Position numbers and translations under genes: made by a program. From the IMG/VR virus record IMGVR_UViG_3300030406_000618: DNA of 20,000 bases. The stretch is one strand, 5' to 3'. Shown one piece after another: positions 10,979 through 18,431 of this stretch (the stretch's first letter is position 1; every line of letters begins with the position of its first letter). This DNA is from an uncultured virus (IMG/VR IMGVR_UViG_3300030406_000618). Its lineage: Duplodnaviria; Heunggongvirae; Uroviricota; Caudoviricetes. The notes under the pieces were generated by a model, which searched no databases, was not told the origin of the DNA, and was given only the letters and a program-made list of their open reading frames with translations.

Positions 10979-11422
10979 AACGAGAGATGTTCCCTCTCTC
11001 GTGCTCTCTCCCTAGTGGGATGATCTAGGATCATCAGTTTAAAAGGTAAATAAAATTGACTTATTAGCGTAATAGCCATGACTAGTTGTCATGTCTATCA
11101 GTACGCCCATGTATCTCTAGTTCGCTCTGCTCCCAAGAGCTACTATGTTTCTCAGTCGAGCTGAGAATAACAAGCAATCCAATTTTATTTTTACTCTCTC
11201 TCGATAATGCTCCATTCGTGGCGACAGAGTTAGGGGGGGTATCAGCTATGTACACGCCACGAACTACCAGTAGATTCTTTCACCAGTCAAGCCATAAAGG
11301 CTCTCGGTGCAACAAGTTGCTTGACGTTTATATCACTTCGTGAAGCGATCAAACAACTGGTCGCACTGACTGTCTTAGAATCTATGGTTGCTAAAGTGGG
11401 CATTAACGAGAGATCGACTCTC
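10979..11422 (+). ncRNA. Large structured intergenic element (ncRNA, 5' leader or origin)
   Basis: Many nested stems, e.g. 11048-11058/11180-11190 (11 bp perfect), 11197-11212/11398-11413, 11216-11224/11255-11263 and 11271-11278/11377-11384. G-U pairs favour the + strand. Confidence 0.55.
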
Positions 11423-11444
11423 ATCATATCAAAGGAGATATACA

Positions 11445-11804
11445 ATGAAGATAACAAGTAACAAAATATATGTAGTTCACACACAATACTATGAGGATTA
11501 CAATATGGAGGCTTCATCATGGAATGAAGGATATTACAAATTTAAAGGAGGAGATACATACTTCCTCTTTGGATTTGACAAAATGGCTACAGCAGTAGCA
11601 TTTGTACATAAGGAATTATGTTATCCAACTGAGTTTCCATCTGGCTACGATGAAATGACATATGATGAAGCAGAAAAATTATATGCTGAGTACACGGAGC
11701 ATGGAGGTGAGGTAAAGAAAATAGACTTACATCAGTGGATGGAGTTGAATGATGGAGGAAGAACGCATAGCGTATCAAAAGATGAAGGAGGCAGAAATGC
11801 ATAA
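11445..11804 (+). CDS. First early gene; conserved phage hypothetical protein
   Basis: AAGGAG SD then ATG at 11445 (MKITSNK...); 'HTQYYEDY...YKFKGGDTY' motif. Confidence 0.75.
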   Translation: MKITSNKIYVVHTQYYEDYNMEASSWNEGYYKFKGGDTYFLFGFDKMATAVAFVHKELCYPTEFPSGYDEMTYDEAEKLYAEYTEHGGEVKKIDLHQWMELNDGGRTHSVSKDEGGRNA

Positions 11805-11976
11805 TCCATTGGAAAAAGAAGCATGTGATATCATAGATAGAATTAGATATCTTGAGGAATCAGGTGCACCTAAGGATGAAATTGATCTTGAAAGACAAAG
11901 ACTTCAAGGAACAATGTATGGTAAAGAACTAGAATACAATGATGTAGAGGAGGTAAATTATGTCATACACAAATAA
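11797..11976 (+). CDS. Hypothetical acidic protein
   Basis: AGGAGG SD before ATG 11797 (MHNPLEK...). Confidence 0.65.
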   Translation: MHNPLEKEACDIIDRIRYLEESGAPKDEIDLERQRLQGTMYGKELEYNDVEEVNYVIHK

Positions 11977-12472
11977 ACCAAGACACCTAGATACGGATGA
12001 AGCTAACATCCAAGCCATTACTATGGTAGCTAACCAAGATTGGTATCAGATACTAGGACATCTTGTTGATGAAACATCTGATGTAGATGTCAATTACTCA
12101 CAGTTATTATTGTGGCAGATATACAATTCATCCAAACGATCTGTGTTTTCATTCAGCTTCAATGCACAGTATTACAAAGATAAACAGATGAATAGTTATC
12201 AGGTTGATAGGGAGTCCACATCAGGACAAGAGATAGCTGAAACCAATGCAAACTACATGGTTTTACAAGGTAAAACATGGAACGCATTGGCTGAGAAATA
12301 CAAAGCTATCAATGAAGCTAGTATCAAACTATATGAAATGTTGTACCAACAACATCCAAAAGATAGGAAGATCACCAAAGTAAGTAAAGGTGAAATGAGA
12401 ACACTAGCTGACATGACACCAGAGGAAGTCAAAAGAATTACTGAGGTGAATAATCAGATGTTCGGATACTAA
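11960..12472 (+). CDS. Hypothetical protein
   Basis: 170 aa, GGAGG SD. Confidence 0.75.
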   Translation: MSYTNKPRHLDTDEANIQAITMVANQDWYQILGHLVDETSDVDVNYSQLLLWQIYNSSKRSVFSFSFNAQYYKDKQMNSYQVDRESTSGQEIAETNANYMVLQGKTWNALAEKYKAINEASIKLYEMLYQQHPKDRKITKVSKGEMRTLADMTPEEVKRITEVNNQMFGY

Positions 12473-12489
12473 TCTGAAATAATATTTCA

Positions 12490-12529
12490 GCTAGTGGGGT
12501 TTATACCCCATTAGCAAAAATTTTTTTTT
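12490..12529 (+). terminator. Probable terminator ending the first early unit
   Basis: GCTAGTGGGGT-TTAT-ACCCCATTAGC (11 bp, one G-U) followed by A5 then T9; the T-run is displaced from the stem. Confidence 0.55.
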
Positions 12530-12549
12530 CAGCGAGGACCAGGGGTATG

Positions 12550-12578
12550 TTGAATATACCGAGCACTCGTGTTACAAT
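12550..12578 (+). promoter_or_regulatory. Sigma70 promoter with extended -10
   Basis: TTGAAT, 17-nt spacer ending TGT, TACAAT; AT-rich tract upstream; SD and ATG 12596 follow. Confidence 0.65.
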
Positions 12579-12595
12579 AAAAAGAAGGAGATAAG

Positions 12596-12904
12596 ATGAT
12601 CAAATCAAAAGTAGCATTTGATGCAGCAGAACGTGCAGCATCATGGGGGGTAAAAAAAATAACAGGTGGTAAATTTTCTGCCTATGCTGAGTATATCGGA
12701 ACATTCTTTCTGATCTACTGTGGCTTAGGTGGTGGCTTTATTGCTATGTGTTTATTCCTTGGTATCAATCCAACATTAGTTGTGTCAGTAGTAGCTGCAC
12801 CAATATGGATTGGTATTGTATTTCTAACTAACAATCTAACTAAGATAGCAGTACATCTAAAGGATGTTGATAGTAATCCAACATCTAAAAGAAAGAAGAA
12901 GTAA
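12596..12904 (+). CDS. Small inner-membrane protein (2 predicted TM helices)
   Basis: 102 aa; two long hydrophobic segments and a basic C-tail; AGGAG SD. Confidence 0.75.
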   Translation: MIKSKVAFDAAERAASWGVKKITGGKFSAYAEYIGTFFLIYCGLGGGFIAMCLFLGINPTLVVSVVAAPIWIGIVFLTNNLTKIAVHLKDVDSNPTSKRKKK

Positions 12905-13194
12905 TGTCCTTGTTAAGGAAAATACAAGACAGTGATATACCACCATCAGATTATGAAGGTGATACTCTAGATGATGTAGCACTAGATTATCTGATGAAGG
13001 TATATGATGAGAATAAATTTGTAGGATTTGATACATGGGAAGAACTAAAAGAAAACTGCTATATATCAATGTTGCAAGGAGGATATCCATTTAGACTAAA
13101 AGATGAAATCTATGAAGTTGTTGATGATGCAATCAGAGATGACTATCCAGATCCAGGCTATGAGGATATACCGAAGGAGGAAGATGATGACTAA
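12904..13194 (+). CDS. Highly acidic protein (candidate DNA mimic)
   Basis: 96 aa; hand count of 29 D/E versus 9 K/R; TAATG coupling. Confidence 0.7.
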   Translation: MSLLRKIQDSDIPPSDYEGDTLDDVALDYLMKVYDENKFVGFDTWEELKENCYISMLQGGYPFRLKDEIYEVVDDAIRDDYPDPGYEDIPKEEDDD

Positions 13195-13402
13195 TCTGTT
13201 AGATAGGAATGTCATAGAAAATATACTGACTGATCTTGGTAAATGTCAGGAGGAGTCAGGTGTTATCATGACTGATGCTAAGTATGTGTTTGAAGCATCA
13301 CAAAATTTAGAGGATCGTATCAAAGATATAAGTGATCGTTTAAATAAACTAATTGAAACTTGGGAGGAACGAGATGACTACAAGAAAGCAAATGCACGTT
13401 GA
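13187..13402 (+). CDS. Hypothetical coiled-coil protein
   Basis: AGGAGG SD at 13175-13180 favours a start at 13187 (or 13184). Confidence 0.65.
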   Translation: MTNLLDRNVIENILTDLGKCQEESGVIMTDAKYVFEASQNLEDRIKDISDRLNKLIETWEERDDYKKANAR

Positions 13403-13553
13403 ATTAAGTGTATCAGTACCTTGCTTCAGATGTAATGGACTAGGTGTGATACCATGGGGTGATGCTCCTGATGAATGTGATCAATGTGAAGAATGTGAAG
13501 GACATGGTGAATGGCTGGAAAAAGTAGACATGAAGGAGGAAAATAATGAGTGA
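13374..13553 (+). CDS. DnaJ-type zinc-finger microprotein
   Basis: Two CxxCxGxG repeats (CFRCNGLG, CEECEGHG); GGAGG SD before ATG 13374. Confidence 0.7.
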   Translation: MTTRKQMHVELSVSVPCFRCNGLGVIPWGDAPDECDQCEECEGHGEWLEKVDMKEENNE

Positions 13554-13800
13554 TTCTATGAAAGTATTACAACTTAGATGGATTGAATCAGTACAAAAGA
13601 TGTATGATGCTCTTGATAAAGATGTAGTAAAGTATGGTAAATATAAATTTGATGAGGTTGTATTAGTACATAACGAAATGATAACACAACTCTGTTCTAC
13701 TATAGATAATATAGAAGAAGAATTAATTAAGACAACTCATACGATTAAGTATTTGAATGAAGCAGCAGTAAAACTAAAGGAGGCTATCAAAAATGGGTAG
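13546..13800 (+). CDS. Hypothetical coiled-coil protein
   Basis: 84 aa, AGGAGG SD, overlaps both neighbours. Confidence 0.7.
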   Translation: MSDSMKVLQLRWIESVQKMYDALDKDVVKYGKYKFDEVVLVHNEMITQLCSTIDNIEEELIKTTHTIKYLNEAAVKLKEAIKNG

Positions 13801-14203
13801 ATATTACGAAGGCGATATAGAAGGTAAGTTCTGGTTTGGTGTACAATCTAGTGATGATGCAGATTTTTTTGGACAACAAGGATTTCAACCAGAGTGGCTT
13901 GAATATTTCTTTGATGAAAAAGACTTGGAAAAAATACAGAAAGGTGTAGATACTTGTCTAACAAAACTTGGTGATAAGAAAAAATTATTAGATGATTTCT
14001 TTGAAAGAGTAGAAGGTTATACAAGAGAAGAAGTATGTAAGGTATTAGATGTACCAGTACCAAAAGTAGGTATGTCAATACAAGATCATAACAAAAGTAA
14101 ATACCATTATTATTTAGAATGGTATGCACGATATGAACTAGGTAAGAAGATACTAGATCGTGTTAAATCAAATGGTTTCTGTTCGTTTAGAGCAGAAATA
14201 TAA
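13793..14203 (+). CDS. Conserved phage hypothetical protein
   Basis: 136 aa; 'MGRYYEGDIEGKFWFGVQSSDDADFFG' N-terminus; AGGAGG SD. Confidence 0.75.
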   Translation: MGRYYEGDIEGKFWFGVQSSDDADFFGQQGFQPEWLEYFFDEKDLEKIQKGVDTCLTKLGDKKKLLDDFFERVEGYTREEVCKVLDVPVPKVGMSIQDHNKSKYHYYLEWYARYELGKKILDRVKSNGFCSFRAEI

Positions 14204-14208
14204 GTTTA

Positions 14209-14585
14209 ACTGGGTGCATTGGTCTTTGTAGCAGTGAGTGAAAGAAAGCTGATAGGCTTGGTAAGACAAGTTAGCGTAAAGAGGGTGAGACCTACCTCTG
14301 CCCAGTAAAAAGTTTCCGTATGGAACTGTGTAGGAAAGACATAAGGTAGTAAGCGTAAAGCTAAAGCTGGTGGCTACACGCCTACACAGAAAGTTTCGTG
14401 ATACTGAGTAGCTCTCGGTATCGGCTGACTGAACAACTCTTTAACAGAGGGGTAAGGTACACTTGAGATGAAGTATGGGCAAATGCCTGAGGTACTCGAA
14501 GGTGGTTGTAAGTAGGCAAATGATGAATGTATATCTGTAGCTGAAAGCATGAGGGTAATAACACTAATCCCTCGCCCTTGGCGAA
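14209..14585 (+). ncRNA. Candidate large structured ncRNA (about 380 nt)
   Basis: 400-nt gap in a tightly packed operon, GC-richer than the flanks. Stems at 14209-14215/14300-14306, 14326-14334/14381-14389, 14400-14408/14414-14422, 14433-14438/14504-14509 and 14551-14555/14569-14573, with many G-U pairs and A-rich junctions. Confidence 0.65.
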
Positions 14586-14603
14586 TGTAACAAAGGAGGA
14601 AAT

Positions 14604-15407
14604 ATGTTACCACAAGAACTAATGTTTCAGGTACGTGAAGAACCTGTATATAACCAACATGGCTCAAGGCTAGATGGCTACAAGCAGTTGGTTAAAGACG
14701 AGAACAACGAACTGATTGCAGTTCACAAGAACACATACCGAGTCATATCACATGACACAGTATATGATAAAGCTAAAGATTTTCTAACAGATAACTTTAA
14801 CACCAATGGTATGACTGAGGAACACAAATGGTCTAACCATGGTGCTGTAATGGCTACTAGATTCTCTTTACCAGAGTATCAGATACCATTCAAAGATACT
14901 TCTATTGGTCTAGAAGCTGTAGTATGGAACAGCTACAATGGTATGCGTTCATTTAGATTTGATCTAGGTTTCTACCTGTGGTTATGTCTTAATGGACTCA
15001 AGAATTCGGTATGGGATATCAGTTTGAATACTGCACACAAAGGTAGTGGTGAGATTAAACTAGCATTACCTGGTGGTTATGCAGCTCTTGATGGACTACA
15101 AACTGTATATAACTACATGACTAACTGGTTAGAAACACCAGTACAAGACTATGAATTATATAGTGAAATAGATAGATTGTGCTATCAGCCAACACGTACT
15201 GACAAGAGTCATGTCAATCAACAACATAGAAATTATATTGTAGATCAGTATGAAAACAATTATGCAAAGACATATGGACCTAATAAATTCAGTGCATATC
15301 AAGCAATTACACACTGGAGTACACATTATCCTAGCGATTCCGTAAATACTCGTTATGATAGAGAAAGGAAAGTGTCTAACATGGCTTGGTTTAGCCAAGC
15401 AGCGTAG
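14604..15407 (+). CDS. DUF932 family protein
   Basis: 267 aa with 'YRVISH', 'NSYNGMRSF', 'LCLNG', 'H' and 'AYQAITHWSTH' motifs; AGGAGG SD. Confidence 0.8.
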   Translation: MLPQELMFQVREEPVYNQHGSRLDGYKQLVKDENNELIAVHKNTYRVISHDTVYDKAKDFLTDNFNTNGMTEEHKWSNHGAVMATRFSLPEYQIPFKDTSIGLEAVVWNSYNGMRSFRFDLGFYLWLCLNGLKNSVWDISLNTAHKGSGEIKLALPGGYAALDGLQTVYNYMTNWLETPVQDYELYSEIDRLCYQPTRTDKSHVNQQHRNYIVDQYENNYAKTYGPNKFSAYQAITHWSTHYPSDSVNTRYDRERKVSNMAWFSQAA

Positions 15408-15413
15408 AGATTA

Positions 15414-15458
15414 GATGGGAGTGCACTTCTTCATCTTATTCCTCCTCGTACTCCCATC
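15414..15458 (+). ncRNA. Hairpin A with anti-SD/anti-AUG loop (candidate antisense sRNA)
   Basis: 11-bp stem GATGGGAGTGC/GTACTCCCATC; loop ACTTCTTCATCTTATTCCTCCTC. Confidence 0.55.
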
Positions 15459-15503
15459 CTTCAATCAATGAATCATGTAACTAAATTAACAAAGGAGAGC
15501 TTT

Positions 15504-15632
15504 GTGATAGAAAAATGTAAATCATGTAATAGAAAGTATACAAGGGCTATGCTTATAGATTTTCAACAAGCTAGATTTTGTATAAAATGTTTTAATAGGA
15601 GAGGATATGAAAACAAAAACAAGAATAGTTAA
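15504..15632 (+). CDS. Zinc-finger microprotein (42 aa)
   Basis: Hand-translated from GTG after AAGGAG: MIEKCKSCNRKYTRAMLIDFQQARFCIKCFNRRGYENKNKNS; two CxxC motifs. Confidence 0.6.
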   Translation: MIEKCKSCNRKYTRAMLIDFQQARFCIKCFNRRGYENKNKNS

Positions 15633-15891
15633 GAAACTATGGAAGGGTATGTATATTTCACTTAGAGATTACGAAATCCAACAAGCTATTGATAAGAACT
15701 ACACTATCCAGGCAGTTCATAAAGGTGAAGTAATGATGCTTACACCATCAAGATTAAAAGATATTGATTTATCTATAGGAACTCCACAGAAATCAGTGTA
15801 TAGTGGTAAGTCTTATAGACTAATAGATGTGAGGTGGAATCCATATGACAGATCAGATAAATCCGAGTCATTACAAGCAAGGAACAATTGA
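15607..15891 (+). CDS. Hypothetical protein
   Basis: 94 aa, AGGAG SD. Confidence 0.7.
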   Translation: MKTKTRIVKKLWKGMYISLRDYEIQQAIDKNYTIQAVHKGEVMMLTPSRLKDIDLSIGTPQKSVYSGKSYRLIDVRWNPYDRSDKSESLQARNN

Positions 15892-16045
15892 AACATATGA
15901 TTTTATAATGGACAAAGAACTATCGTATCCTCTGGGTAATGTTGTGAAATATATTATAAGGCACAAACATAAAGGAGGAGTTGTAGATCTACAAAAAGCT
16001 ATGTGGTATCTACAACGAGCAATAGATGACTACGATAGACGTTAA
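15845..16045 (+). CDS. DUF3310 (SaV/T7 gp1.7-like) protein
   Basis: 'INPSHY..G.IE', 'GNVVKYIIR..HKGGVVDLQKAMWYL' signature. Confidence 0.88.
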   Translation: MTDQINPSHYKQGTIETYDFIMDKELSYPLGNVVKYIIRHKHKGGVVDLQKAMWYLQRAIDDYDRR

Positions 16046-16367
16046 ACTTTTAGTAAGAAAATTTGCAAGTGATAGTAAGCTACGTAATAGACCGAAGAAA
16101 AATTATAATATGTCCGATCCAATGCAACGTAAGCAGTGGTGGATTGATAAGGTTTGTTACTTTTGTTATCTCAAGCATGATAAAGAAACTGCCCAGGCAT
16201 TACATATTGAGCTTACTAAACCGTATGTACATCCAACAGCCAAAGCTATGGCAAAAGAACTTTGGTCTGATAAGAAAAGATTTGACGAAATAATAACGAG
16301 GAGGACAAATGAATATACACAAGCAAAAGAAAGTTATAGACAGAAGTCAAGGAATCGGAGGAAGTGA
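16026..16367 (+). CDS. Hypothetical basic protein
   Basis: 113 aa; overlaps both neighbours in operon fashion. Confidence 0.65.
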   Translation: MTTIDVKLLVRKFASDSKLRNRPKKNYNMSDPMQRKQWWIDKVCYFCYLKHDKETAQALHIELTKPYVHPTAKAMAKELWSDKKRFDEIITRRTNEYTQAKESYRQKSRNRRK

Positions 16368-16920
16368 TGCTACTAAGATAGTAGCTGGTGATTGGAAAGA
16401 TCTATACCTAGAAAAGAAAGGTCTAAAAGAAAATGAAGATCTATCTTTTGTACTACCAGTACAGCTAGGTATATATACCGAAGATTTCAATAGAGATTGG
16501 TTTGCTGCACAAACAGATATGCCAGTTAAAGAATGTGATTGGACACTCTTACACAATCCAGTAGATAAGAATGGAAGTAAGTGGATGATGGCTAATCTGG
16601 ATGGTTTTGTATTAAACCAAGATCTTAAAACAATAGGTGTCTTTGAAGCAAAGCACGTACACGCATTTACTAAAGATGATTCTATACTAGAAAAATACTA
16701 TGCACAGATACAGCACTATATGATTGTATCTAATTTACCACAAGCATGGTTATCTATTATCTTTGGTAATAATAAATGGAAGTCATTTCATGTACAAGCT
16801 GACAAGAAGTTTCAAAAGAAACTAATCAAAGCAGAGGAAATGTTTTGGCAACATATTATTAATGATGAAGAACCTGCTGATTATGTAGAGTTCAGTTCGA
16901 TAGGAGGAACTAATGACTAA
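16309..16920 (+). CDS. YqaJ/lambda-exonuclease family recombination nuclease
   Basis: 'R..GIGGSD', 'G...E', 'ANLDG', 'FEAK' and 'YYAQIQHYM' motifs. Confidence 0.92.
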   Translation: MNIHKQKKVIDRSQGIGGSDATKIVAGDWKDLYLEKKGLKENEDLSFVLPVQLGIYTEDFNRDWFAAQTDMPVKECDWTLLHNPVDKNGSKWMMANLDGFVLNQDLKTIGVFEAKHVHAFTKDDSILEKYYAQIQHYMIVSNLPQAWLSIIFGNNKWKSFHVQADKKFQKKLIKAEEMFWQHIINDEEPADYVEFSSIGGTND

Positions 16921-17371
16921 CAAAAGATATTGGGATCAACTAAAAACTACTGATCCTAGATTTACTAAGAAGATTAACAAAGGCTTTGGTGAACTAACTA
17001 CCATTGATCCAATGTACCAGATTATGAAGATGACTGAAGTATTCGGTCCATGTGGTATTGGATGGGGATGGGATTGTAAATACACGTACACAGATAGTAT
17101 GGTATTTGCAGAGGTAACTATTTGGTTAGATTGTAAATCACAAAACTACGGACCTGTATCTTCTGTTCAATCATTACACAAAAGTAATGGTAAACTAGAT
17201 GATGAATGTACTAAGAAAGCTATGACTGATGCACTCACTAAAGCATTATCTCATGTTGGTGTAAGTGCAGATGTATTCTTAGGTATGCATGACAACAGTA
17301 AGTATGTTGAAAAAGTCAAAGCAGATATAAAATCTAATGTAGATAAATCGAAAGTTAAGGAGGTTATATGA
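16913..17371 (+). CDS. Sak/Rad52-like single-strand annealing protein
   Basis: 'TTIDPMYQIMKMTEVFGPCGIGWG' and 'KKAMTDALTKALS..G..AD' motifs; follows the exonuclease. Confidence 0.82.
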   Translation: MTNKRYWDQLKTTDPRFTKKINKGFGELTTIDPMYQIMKMTEVFGPCGIGWGWDCKYTYTDSMVFAEVTIWLDCKSQNYGPVSSVQSLHKSNGKLDDECTKKAMTDALTKALSHVGVSADVFLGMHDNSKYVEKVKADIKSNVDKSKVKEVI

Positions 17372-17673
17372 AGTGTATAAGAGCTGGACATTATCAAACA
17401 ACTATAGCTTATGGGCATAGCCTAAACATTATAGTAAATATAGTGAAGGTAACGCCTAGGTTTCAGGACTCTGTTACTAAATGGAGGCTGACCATTGATG
17501 ATACTCTTATCAAGAATCAACATAAATCTGATTGGGATTCTTACGCAACTGCTAAGAGGAAAGCTATTAGAATGTGTGAGAATCTACTAATGAATGACAT
17601 CATTAGAAAGATTGAGAAGGCTTTTCCTAGACCAAAGGTAAAGTCAGATAACCTAGTAGAGTTAAGGAGGTAA
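17368..17673 (+). CDS. Hypothetical protein
   Basis: 101 aa, AGGAGG SD, ATGA overlap. Confidence 0.7.
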   Translation: MKCIRAGHYQTTIAYGHSLNIIVNIVKVTPRFQDSVTKWRLTIDDTLIKNQHKSDWDSYATAKRKAIRMCENLLMNDIIRKIEKAFPRPKVKSDNLVELRR

Positions 17674-17674
17674 T

Positions 17675-18082
17675 ATGATTAACAAAGTAATACTAGTAGG
17701 TAGATTGGGTGTCGATCCAGAGATCAAAGCTACCAGTAAAGGTGATGAATATGCTAACTTTAGTTTAGCTACATCAAAAAAGATCAAGACTAAAGATGGT
17801 ACGTGGCAAGAAAAAACTACTTGGCACAAAATTACTACCTTTGATCCTAATCTAACAAATACTATCAAGAACTATGTATCTAAGGGTACTATGTTATATC
17901 TTGAAGGTGAAATAGATGTATCAGAATATACTGATTCTAATGGTAATAAAAAGTATAATACTTCTATCATTATACCAAGAGTCACTGGTATCATGAAGAT
18001 GTTAGGTGGTAAAGGTGATGCTAAACAAGCACCTGCCAAAGACATCAATGATGATCTACCAGATGATCCAATACCATTTTAG
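17675..18082 (+). CDS. ssb: Single-stranded DNA-binding protein
   Basis: 'INKVILVGRLGVDPE' and 'KTTWH' motifs; acidic tail ending DDPIPF. Confidence 0.95.
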   Translation: MINKVILVGRLGVDPEIKATSKGDEYANFSLATSKKIKTKDGTWQEKTTWHKITTFDPNLTNTIKNYVSKGTMLYLEGEIDVSEYTDSNGNKKYNTSIIIPRVTGIMKMLGGKGDAKQAPAKDINDDLPDDPIPF

Positions 18083-18088
18083 TAAAGT

Positions 18089-18177
18089 TTAGTTGCTTTC
18101 ACCCAGCAGCTAATTGGGTGGTGATACTTTCTTCAAGTGTTATCTCCGCAAAATAACTACTCCTAGTATTGCCACCC
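18089..18177 (+). ncRNA. Hairpin B with anti-SD loop plus an upstream hairpin (candidate antisense sRNA)
   Basis: 13-bp stem 18116-18128/18165-18177 (2 G-U); loop TTCTTCAAGTGTTATCTCCGCAAAATAACTACTCCT; upstream stem 18089-18097/18105-18113. Confidence 0.55.
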
Positions 18178-18182
18178 TATAA

Positions 18183-18431
18183 ATGATAGAAAGAATTATG
18201 GATATGATAATCAAAGGAGAACTAGATCAACTTGTAGATACACTTAATGATTACAGTGTTTATCTCAAACAGTTCGGTTATGACACCGATACTATTTTTG
18301 CAGCATATGCCATCATGGCAGCTTCGCTATCAGGTAAAAAGATCAATAAAAATCAAACTACAGATGCTATTAAAGAACGTATGAAAGAACTTAGTGTTGT
18401 TCAAGCACGTGCTTCTGGTACAATTCACTAG
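18183..18431 (+). CDS. Hypothetical protein (start uncertain)
   Basis: 82 aa; last + strand ORF, converging on the minus-strand genes. Confidence 0.6.
   Translation: MIERIMDMIIKGELDQLVDTLNDYSVYLKQFGYDTDTIFAAYAIMAASLSGKKINKNQTTDAIKERMKELSVVQARASGTIH

Follow-up and report, generated by a model that had tools for sequence, protein, structure and literature searches.

A conserved RNA hairpin with an invariant anti-Shine-Dalgarno motif in its loop between the DUF932 and zinc-ribbon genes of a probable SAR11 phage

The present work deals with a stretch of 20,000 nucleotides (hereafter the window), which is part of an uncultured podovirus-like phage (IMG/VR record IMGVR_UViG_3300030406_000618), and with an RNA hairpin, hairpin A (15414-15458, + strand), flanked there by a DUF932 gene ahead and a small zinc-ribbon gene behind. 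Our analysis confirms that hairpin A is a conserved structure of the + strand RNA and that its conserved single-stranded part is UCCUCC, the core of the anti-Shine-Dalgarno (anti-SD) sequence; the motif is invariant, the position of the hairpin is fixed and no specific target is conserved. The model we propose, with rather less than even confidence, combines two activities: hairpin A would be a generic module that pairs with Shine-Dalgarno (SD) sequences and gates translation, and it would in addition gate the zinc-ribbon gene behind it. A preliminary description of the same DNA had offered another scheme, in which hairpin A and a second hairpin, hairpin B (18116-18177, + strand), were related small RNAs derived from 3' untranslated regions (3' UTRs) and blocked the translation starts of two early genes, at 12596 and 11445. 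This two-RNA switch did not stand up to the analysis: the two starts are not special as targets, and the best partner differs from one genome to another.

Hairpin A counts 45 nt. Its 5' arm (15414-15424) and its 3' arm (15448-15458) form an 11-bp stem with one G.U pair, which encloses a 23-nt loop devoid of G (15425-15447), and UCCUCC occupies positions 15440-15445 in the 3' half of this loop; the RNA folds with a free energy of -17.9 kcal/mol (z -4.3). Relatives were collected around the DUF932 gene and around the ssb gene. Among the 66 loci that retain at least 90 nt past DUF932, which represent 36 distinct sequences with DUF932 identities down to 56%, TCCTCC is present within 80 nt past the DUF932 gene in every one (66/66); one of these loci, L001, is identical to the window and not independent of it. 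When 35 sequences are aligned jointly, TCCTCC and nothing else of the loop is invariant, the remainder existing in several unrelated versions. The loop of the window contains the sequence UUCCUCCUC and the longest anti-SD form met in the relatives is CCUCCUCC; CCUCC is given in literature abstracts as the core of the anti-SD sequence.

Three types of stem exist among the relatives, and the stem, like the rest of the loop, is exchanged between lineages. In the group 1 alignment (19 sequences, 11 pairs) the pairing is complete (100%), with 1 compensatory pair and 6 G.U cells. The 16 sequences of group 2 possess a wholly different stem, made of 10 bp and an inner helix of 4 bp and closing loops of 28-41 nt; they too are 100% paired, with 1 compensatory pair and 20 U.G cells. 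The compensatory and G.U changes in the stems fit the + strand only, and the minus-strand fold is weaker than the + strand fold for hairpins A and B alike, so that the earlier proposal that both stems favour + strand RNA is upheld. Hairpin A is retained where recombination altered the tail of DUF932 or the N-terminus of the zinc-ribbon protein. Three loci (L017, L020 and L021) are mosaics, in which a group 1-like DUF932 (88% identity to the window) is followed by the gene tail, the hairpin and the zinc-ribbon gene of group 2; the two parts were therefore joined by recombination right at the end of DUF932.

A scan of the window for hairpins with CUCC loops and strong stems returned only A and B, 2.7 kb apart, and Pelagibacter phage Hodr contains neither such a hairpin nor a match to DUF932; the reading as a dispersed repeat family was rejected. 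The group 1 hairpin pattern, scanned against 185,579 species genomes, gave 11 matches in unrelated bacteria, none of them informative. Neither the window nor any of 13 relatives has a match to an Rfam family at gathering score, the rows at A and B being at chance level only, and at hairpin A no match is obtained even at E values up to 10. No U-tract follows either hairpin and the terminator scan lists neither, which eliminates the reading of A or B as intrinsic terminators, the stem being without a following T-run.

The position of hairpin A is fixed as well. The DUF932 gene (14604-15407, + strand; Pfam PF06067, E 1.7e-8) ends with a stop codon 6 nt before the hairpin, the ATG of the zinc-ribbon gene (15468-15632, + strand; 54 aa with the pattern CxxC...CxxC), which has no SD, stands 9 nt past it, and the gap of roughly 60 nt between stop and start is filled by the hairpin. 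Among the variants, the DUF932 stop is found 5-9 nt before the stem (11 variants) and the start 8-14 nt after it, and the next gene in nearly all relatives encodes a zinc-ribbon protein of 51-56 aa. That this gene starts at 15468 follows from the comparison of the window with the L003 type, since their differences in 15468-15505 are all synonymous or conservative. The small, basic product matches no Pfam family above the cut-off; its predicted structure (pLDDT 77.9) is a generic zinc ribbon, and a Foldseek search with this model returned only generic zinc-finger folds (best E 0.23), nothing informative. With the next gene only 9 nt away and neither promoter nor terminator found between it and the hairpin, the origin from a 3' UTR formerly attributed to hairpin A has to be abandoned: hairpin A is intercistronic and must affect how the following gene is translated.

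In three variants (L025, L013 and L016), the sole in-frame ATG of the zinc-ribbon gene stands in the hairpin itself, within its 5' arm and 7-8 nt past the DUF932 stop, and ribosomes must therefore open the stem to make the zinc-ribbon protein. The zinc-ribbon open reading frame of these variants (4812-4988 in L025) is without the usual N-terminus, and the hairpin encodes its first 17 residues.

According to the model we propose, hairpin A would act as a single module, similar to those of the bacterial cuckoo RNAs considered at the end of this text, within a polycistronic phage mRNA. Loop A, be it in place on its mRNA or once freed as a small RNA, would bind the GGAGG-type ribosome-binding sites of phage messages generally, and not that of one early gene, and the pairing of UCCUCC with these SD sequences would damp the translation of the messages concerned. 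The start of the stem would be within reach of a ribosome stopped at the DUF932 stop codon, and the end of the stem, 8-14 nt before the SD-less zinc-ribbon start, would gate the translation of the zinc-ribbon protein, the stem thereby coupling the two genes. The generic character of the pairing is consistent with the behaviour of loop A towards possible partners. In the window, numerous start regions pair with it, at energies of -15 to -23 kcal/mol; across 24 genomes its four best partners change each time, and the first gene after the terminator at 12490-12515 is rarely among them. Only in the window and in L033 does the pairing with this first gene extend beyond the SD; in 13 of the 15 loop/first-gene pairs it is at SD level only. 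As to the gating, the modelling of a ribosome at the stop codon raised the mean unpaired probability around the group 1 start from 0.37 to 0.65, from 0.45 to 0.64 and from 0.49 to 0.76, and in L028 from 0.44 to 0.57.

Several observations weigh against this model. The gain in start accessibility just quoted is modest in group 1, and it is absent in the window (0.60 to 0.57) and in group 2. Some group 2 variants have an SD ahead of the zinc-ribbon start, and an SD-less start is not rare in the window, 19 of its 44 called starts, some of them imprecise, being without an SD motif. The 13 distant zinc-ribbon homologues without an upstream DUF932 are also without such a hairpin. Compared with the cuckoo RNAs, hairpin A stands alone where they have 2-4 hairpins, is without the full CCUCCUCCC motif and without a DUF1127 neighbour, and matches no Rfam model. 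A generic repressor co-transcribed with its own targets would moreover be an odd design. Contigs from RNA libraries (four runs) cover the DUF932 gene, the ssb gene and an 82-aa gene of relatives, one of them entering a hairpin A of the L003 type, and two contigs bridge a type 2 hairpin B into the next gene; these contigs give no strand, ends or level, and no stable RNA is demonstrable from them.

The last point against a purely generic pairing is an association of loop A with two particular starts. For the first gene after the terminator, the matched loop/start pairs average -14.62 against -13.18 for all pairings, and 7 of 5000 permutations were as low (15 distinct pairs). The RecE-like exonuclease gene gives a stronger signal of this kind, with -17.44 for matched pairs against -16.14 and 0 of 2000 permutations as low (26 pairs), and the other nine of the ten control genes show no association with loop A. 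The start region of the exonuclease gene (16284-16323, + strand; ATG at 16309) repeatedly pairs well with loop A in the relatives; in the window itself it reaches only -13.3 to -16.1. Its SD is GAGGAAGG in 18 of 18 pairs with CCUUCCUC (also given as CCTTCCTC) in the loop, and GAGGAG(G/A) in 8 of 8 pairs whose loop is without CCUUCCUC. The exonuclease start also contains AUAUAC, which was considered as a further pairing block and rejected, since several loop variants have lost the complementarity and the target has not changed. These statistics come from sequences that fall into few lineages and are not independent, and swapped pairs would still form 7/8 bp. The covariation of loop and target expected from the two-RNA switch is thus present as a weak signal for the first gene, shared with the exonuclease gene and missing from the nine controls, and what remains is a weak, lineage-confounded loop/start association for two genes.

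The closest competitor of our model attributes to hairpin A a role in cis only: the stem would block the SD-less zinc-ribbon start until the ribosome finishing DUF932 melts it, and the loop motif would have no pairing role, or would serve only as the alternative partner of GGGAG/GAGGG in the 5' arm. The fixed distances from stop to stem and from stem to start argue for such a coupling hairpin, as do the start codon inside the stem of the L025, L013 and L016 types and the missing SD of the zinc-ribbon start in the window. The minimum free energy fold of several group 2 variants adds to this, the 5' arm pairing there with the CCUCC of the loop and the 3' arm with the downstream SD; a pseudoknot between the loop and the downstream SD was also considered and is not kept across variants. 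The cis reading leaves unexplained, however, why exactly UCCUCC should be invariant amid an otherwise free loop, the start gains little or no accessibility in the modelling, and distant zinc-ribbon genes do without the hairpin. We regard it as possible, on the unlikely side.

Could the phage possess its own one-module cuckoo RNA? In this more daring extension of our model, a SAR11 phage would carry an anti-SD RNA ahead of a small basic zinc-ribbon protein, in parallel with CcsR and its partner CcaF1, a small protein, and RNA and protein together would throttle the translation of phage genes with a strong SD such as that of the RecE-like exonuclease; hairpin A would then be one of several RNA cassettes released at AAAGUUU junctions. 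The flavour of the exonuclease SD (GAGGAAGG or GAGGAGG) does track whether the loop variant holds CCUUCCUC, in all 26 distinct loop/start pairs. This extension nevertheless appears unlikely to us as a whole.

It is distinctly doubtful that the hairpins are instead elements of RNA processing or stability, that is, nuclease sites or protective ends of a processed operon mRNA without any pairing target. The neighbouring structured modules are each preceded by AAGTTT (14202, 14310, 14391 and 18085), GAGTTTAG precedes the L003-type hairpin A, and a passage of PMC8034643 reports that RNase E cuts the Rhodobacter CcsR precursor at GUUUCC among other sites. Contigs of RNA libraries from two studies, furthermore, end at 15403 and 15405, just ahead of the stem. 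These ends coincide, however, with the point where strains diverge and may be assembly breaks; AAGTTT is not enriched in the window (32 observed against 25.7 expected); and the invariance of UCCUCC would again have no explanation.

The two-RNA switch of the preliminary description, a protein-free passage from early to middle genes in which A and B would act as related 3'-UTR small RNAs, has become highly improbable. The complementarities on which it was built do exist: loop A pairs with 12586-12599 (+ strand) through 5 + 9 bp with a 2-nt bulge, loop B with 11434-11451 (+ strand) through 7 + 6 bp around a 5-nt mismatch, and a second segment of loop B, 18153-18164, with 17358-17367. When each loop was matched by RNAduplex with the 44 start regions of the window, however, 12596, expected to come first for loop A, ranked only 9-10 of 44 at -16.4, the best partner being a start near 13375 at -22.8 and the median about -12; for loop B, 11445 ranked 2 of 44 at -17.9. 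When both strands of the whole window were scanned, 12596 fell outside the top 15 for loop A, and 11445 was 15th for loop B, the antisense of the loop itself counting first. Composition-matched shuffled loops rarely do as well at the named targets themselves (8 of 300 for A, 1 of 300 for B), which favours the switch, but 234 of 300 and 221 of 300, respectively, find some start at which they equal or surpass the named target; a target chosen post hoc therefore explains the match, and our observations do not support 12596 and 11445 as particular targets of the loops. More generally, pairings between pyrimidine-rich loops and purine-rich starts are expected by chance, and ranking and shuffle controls are needed before a target is named.

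Further observations bear on this switch. The better pairing of matched loop/first-gene pairs, as good in only 7 of 5000 permutations, is unexplained, and the switch keeps a small probability because of it; loop and first gene are complementary over 14-15 nt in the window and in L033, whose first genes differ in other respects. For loop B, the 11445 homologue and the hairpin co-occur only in the window and in the L010 type, whose 11445 start region is identical and where the C-to-U transitions in the loop keep G.U pairing to that start (-17.9 and -18.7), this being one other variant only. Set against these points are the first gene's rare appearance among the four best partners, the SD-level pairing of 13 of the 15 pairs, the replacement of loop B in 18 of 20 variants, and the presence of the next gene 9 nt behind hairpin A with no terminator. 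The start at 12596 may reasonably be regarded as heading a transcription unit, as had been proposed, insofar as it is preceded by a classic intrinsic terminator (12490-12515, + strand; terminator scan) and by a sigma-70-like promoter with an extended -10 (12550-12578, + strand); the terminator and promoter are kept in the relatives, ahead of differing first genes.

A role of the minus strand or of the DNA itself (a ribosome-binding site and mini-open reading frame in the loop, or a hairpin for protein binding or replication) is barely conceivable, for although the reverse complements read as an SD and a start codon opening frames of 7 and 8 codons, the G.U pairs (6, 20 and 25 cells) would become A.C mismatches, the minus-strand folds are weaker, and neither frame nor length is kept in relatives, the L003- and L028-type loops being without ATG.

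Hairpin B is a separate element, whose stem and 3' flank are conserved and whose loop holds no conserved anti-SD. Both hairpins lie where the preliminary description had placed them. Hairpin B consists of a 5' arm (18116-18128), a 36-nt loop (18129-18164) and a 3' arm (18165-18177), the arms forming a 13-bp stem with two G.U pairs; together with a small hairpin (18089-18113, + strand) that stands between the ssb stop and hairpin B and has AAAGTTT before it, it folds at -31.2 kcal/mol (z -5.2). In 20 sequences the 13 pairs of the stem are 99.2% paired, with 2 compensatory pairs and 25 G.U or U.G cells. The likeness of the two loops (TTCTTCA..TTAT..CTCC) is real in the window, but it is not conserved: loop B differs in 18 of the 20 variants, which hold GAAAGGA and a C-rich end, and the window shares its loop only with the L010 type, where the first CTCC is CTTC and TTCTTCA is TTTTTCA. 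A and B can thus no longer be taken as related elements, and of the anti-SD character assigned to both loops, that of loop A stands with its UCCUCC in all loci, while that of loop B is not conserved.

The small hairpin is also present in L071, other modules occupying its place in other relatives. Behind hairpin B comes a conserved leader (18178-18200, + strand), in which ATGATAGAAAGA is invariant and which leads to the 82-aa gene, whose aligned start codon is at 18198. This ATGATAGAAAGA (18183-18194) is invariant in the 20 variants and better conserved than the coding sequence that follows. An ATG at 18183 is in frame with the 82-aa gene in the window only and out of frame in the relatives. 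Hairpin B is the last structured module of an array of RNA cassettes and at the same time the conserved leader hairpin of the 82-aa gene.

Other modules of this kind surround the genes discussed above. A non-coding stretch of 400 nt ahead of DUF932 (14204-14603, + strand) contains three structured modules, each behind one of the AAGTTT copies at 14202, 14310 and 14391, and the second of these possesses a 9-bp closing helix at 14326-14389. The third (14402-14581, + strand) gives a full-length alignment to the Rfam manA RNA (RF01745; 34.4 bits, E 1.3e-7 in a 231-nt search), a score short of the gathering threshold (55.2), and several of the model's helices are missing; it would be a manA-like RNA in a probable pelagiphage. 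The excerpts of papers on the manA motif concern cyanophages and metagenomes. In the relatives (L049, L063, L073, L089, L096 and L111, for example), from one to several modules stand between ssb and the gene that follows; their order varies, AAAGTTT precedes each, and some of them are identical to the window modules at 14310 and 14391. The recurrence of the same modules in varying number and order after ssb suggests that RNA cassettes are shuffled in this phage lineage.

The window carries on its minus strand the structural genes of a T7-type phage (portal, capsid, scaffold, tail tube and large terminase). Its + strand gene block, from about 11445 to 18431, comprises small unknown genes, DUF932, a kinase-like fragment, the RecE-like exonuclease, a second exonuclease or annealing-type gene and ssb. 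Between the minus- and + strand gene blocks lies a perfect 9-bp hairpin (11215-11263), the 31-nt loop of which includes seven consecutive G. Among isolates, Pelagibacter phage EXVC031P Hodr comes closest, its terminase being 66% identical; distant blastn matches at the DNA level are limited to short stretches of two other Pelagibacter phages, megablast against phage records gave no match, and the nearest virus record among those searched (G001) has no match to 15000-18400. Because the nearest isolates are Pelagibacter phages, the host is probably SAR11, an alphaproteobacterium.

The phages of SAR11 are among the most abundant marine viruses, and to our knowledge almost nothing is known about the regulation of their genes. 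If our model is correct, a conserved anti-SD hairpin embedded in an operon would represent a virus-borne control of translation at the RNA level, and our full-text literature search found no paper on such an element in phages. The cassette arrays, together with hairpin A, further suggest that this phage lineage invests unusually heavily in non-coding RNA.

Among known systems, intercistronic hairpins that couple the translation of two genes occur in the RNA phage MS2 and in many operons. Hairpin A resembles them in that its stem begins within ribosome reach of a stop codon and a start poor in SD sequence stands just behind the stem or inside it, whereas coupling hairpins need no conserved loop motif and the modelled opening of hairpin A is modest. 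The C-rich loops of the staphylococcal RNAIII and Rsa RNAs carry UCCC motifs proposed, in a passage of PMC4615179, to seed pairing with ribosome-binding sites; unlike hairpin A, these RNAs are transcribed on their own, belong to Gram-positive bacteria and have a different motif.

The comparison with the cuckoo RNAs, small RNAs that bind Hfq, had been drawn in the preliminary description and proves apt for hairpin A. The family as sketched in PMC4615179 consists of 2-4 adjacent hairpins of 24-50 nt each, with CCUCCUCCC in a loop of 9-27 nt, highly variable stems and a motif that is anti-SD-like. According to excerpts of PMC8034643, the cuckoo/CcsR RNAs are co-transcribed with a small gene, from the UTR of which they are excised by RNase E in Rhodobacter, and those of Sinorhizobium are located in a 5' UTR. 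Hairpin A is like cuckoo/CcsR (alpha-r14) in its size of 45 nt, its 23-nt loop, its variable stem, its conserved loop of CCUCC-type anti-SD and its co-transcription with a small gene, while the group 2 loops of 28-41 nt exceed the range of 9-27 nt. Unlike cuckoo, it is a single hairpin at its junction; the invariant part of its loop is UCCUCC, extended in relatives to CCUCCUCC at most, and not CCUCCUCCC; it is phage-borne, standing between two phage genes without a terminator; its neighbours are DUF932 (PF06067) and a zinc ribbon and not DUF1127; and no Rfam model matches it. Hairpin A is not a member of the cuckoo family, since it departs from the defining features of number of hairpins, full motif, neighbouring gene and model match, and we would rather describe it as cuckoo-like in its working principle. 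Should this be true, a phage element would resemble a family so far known only from host alphaproteobacteria.

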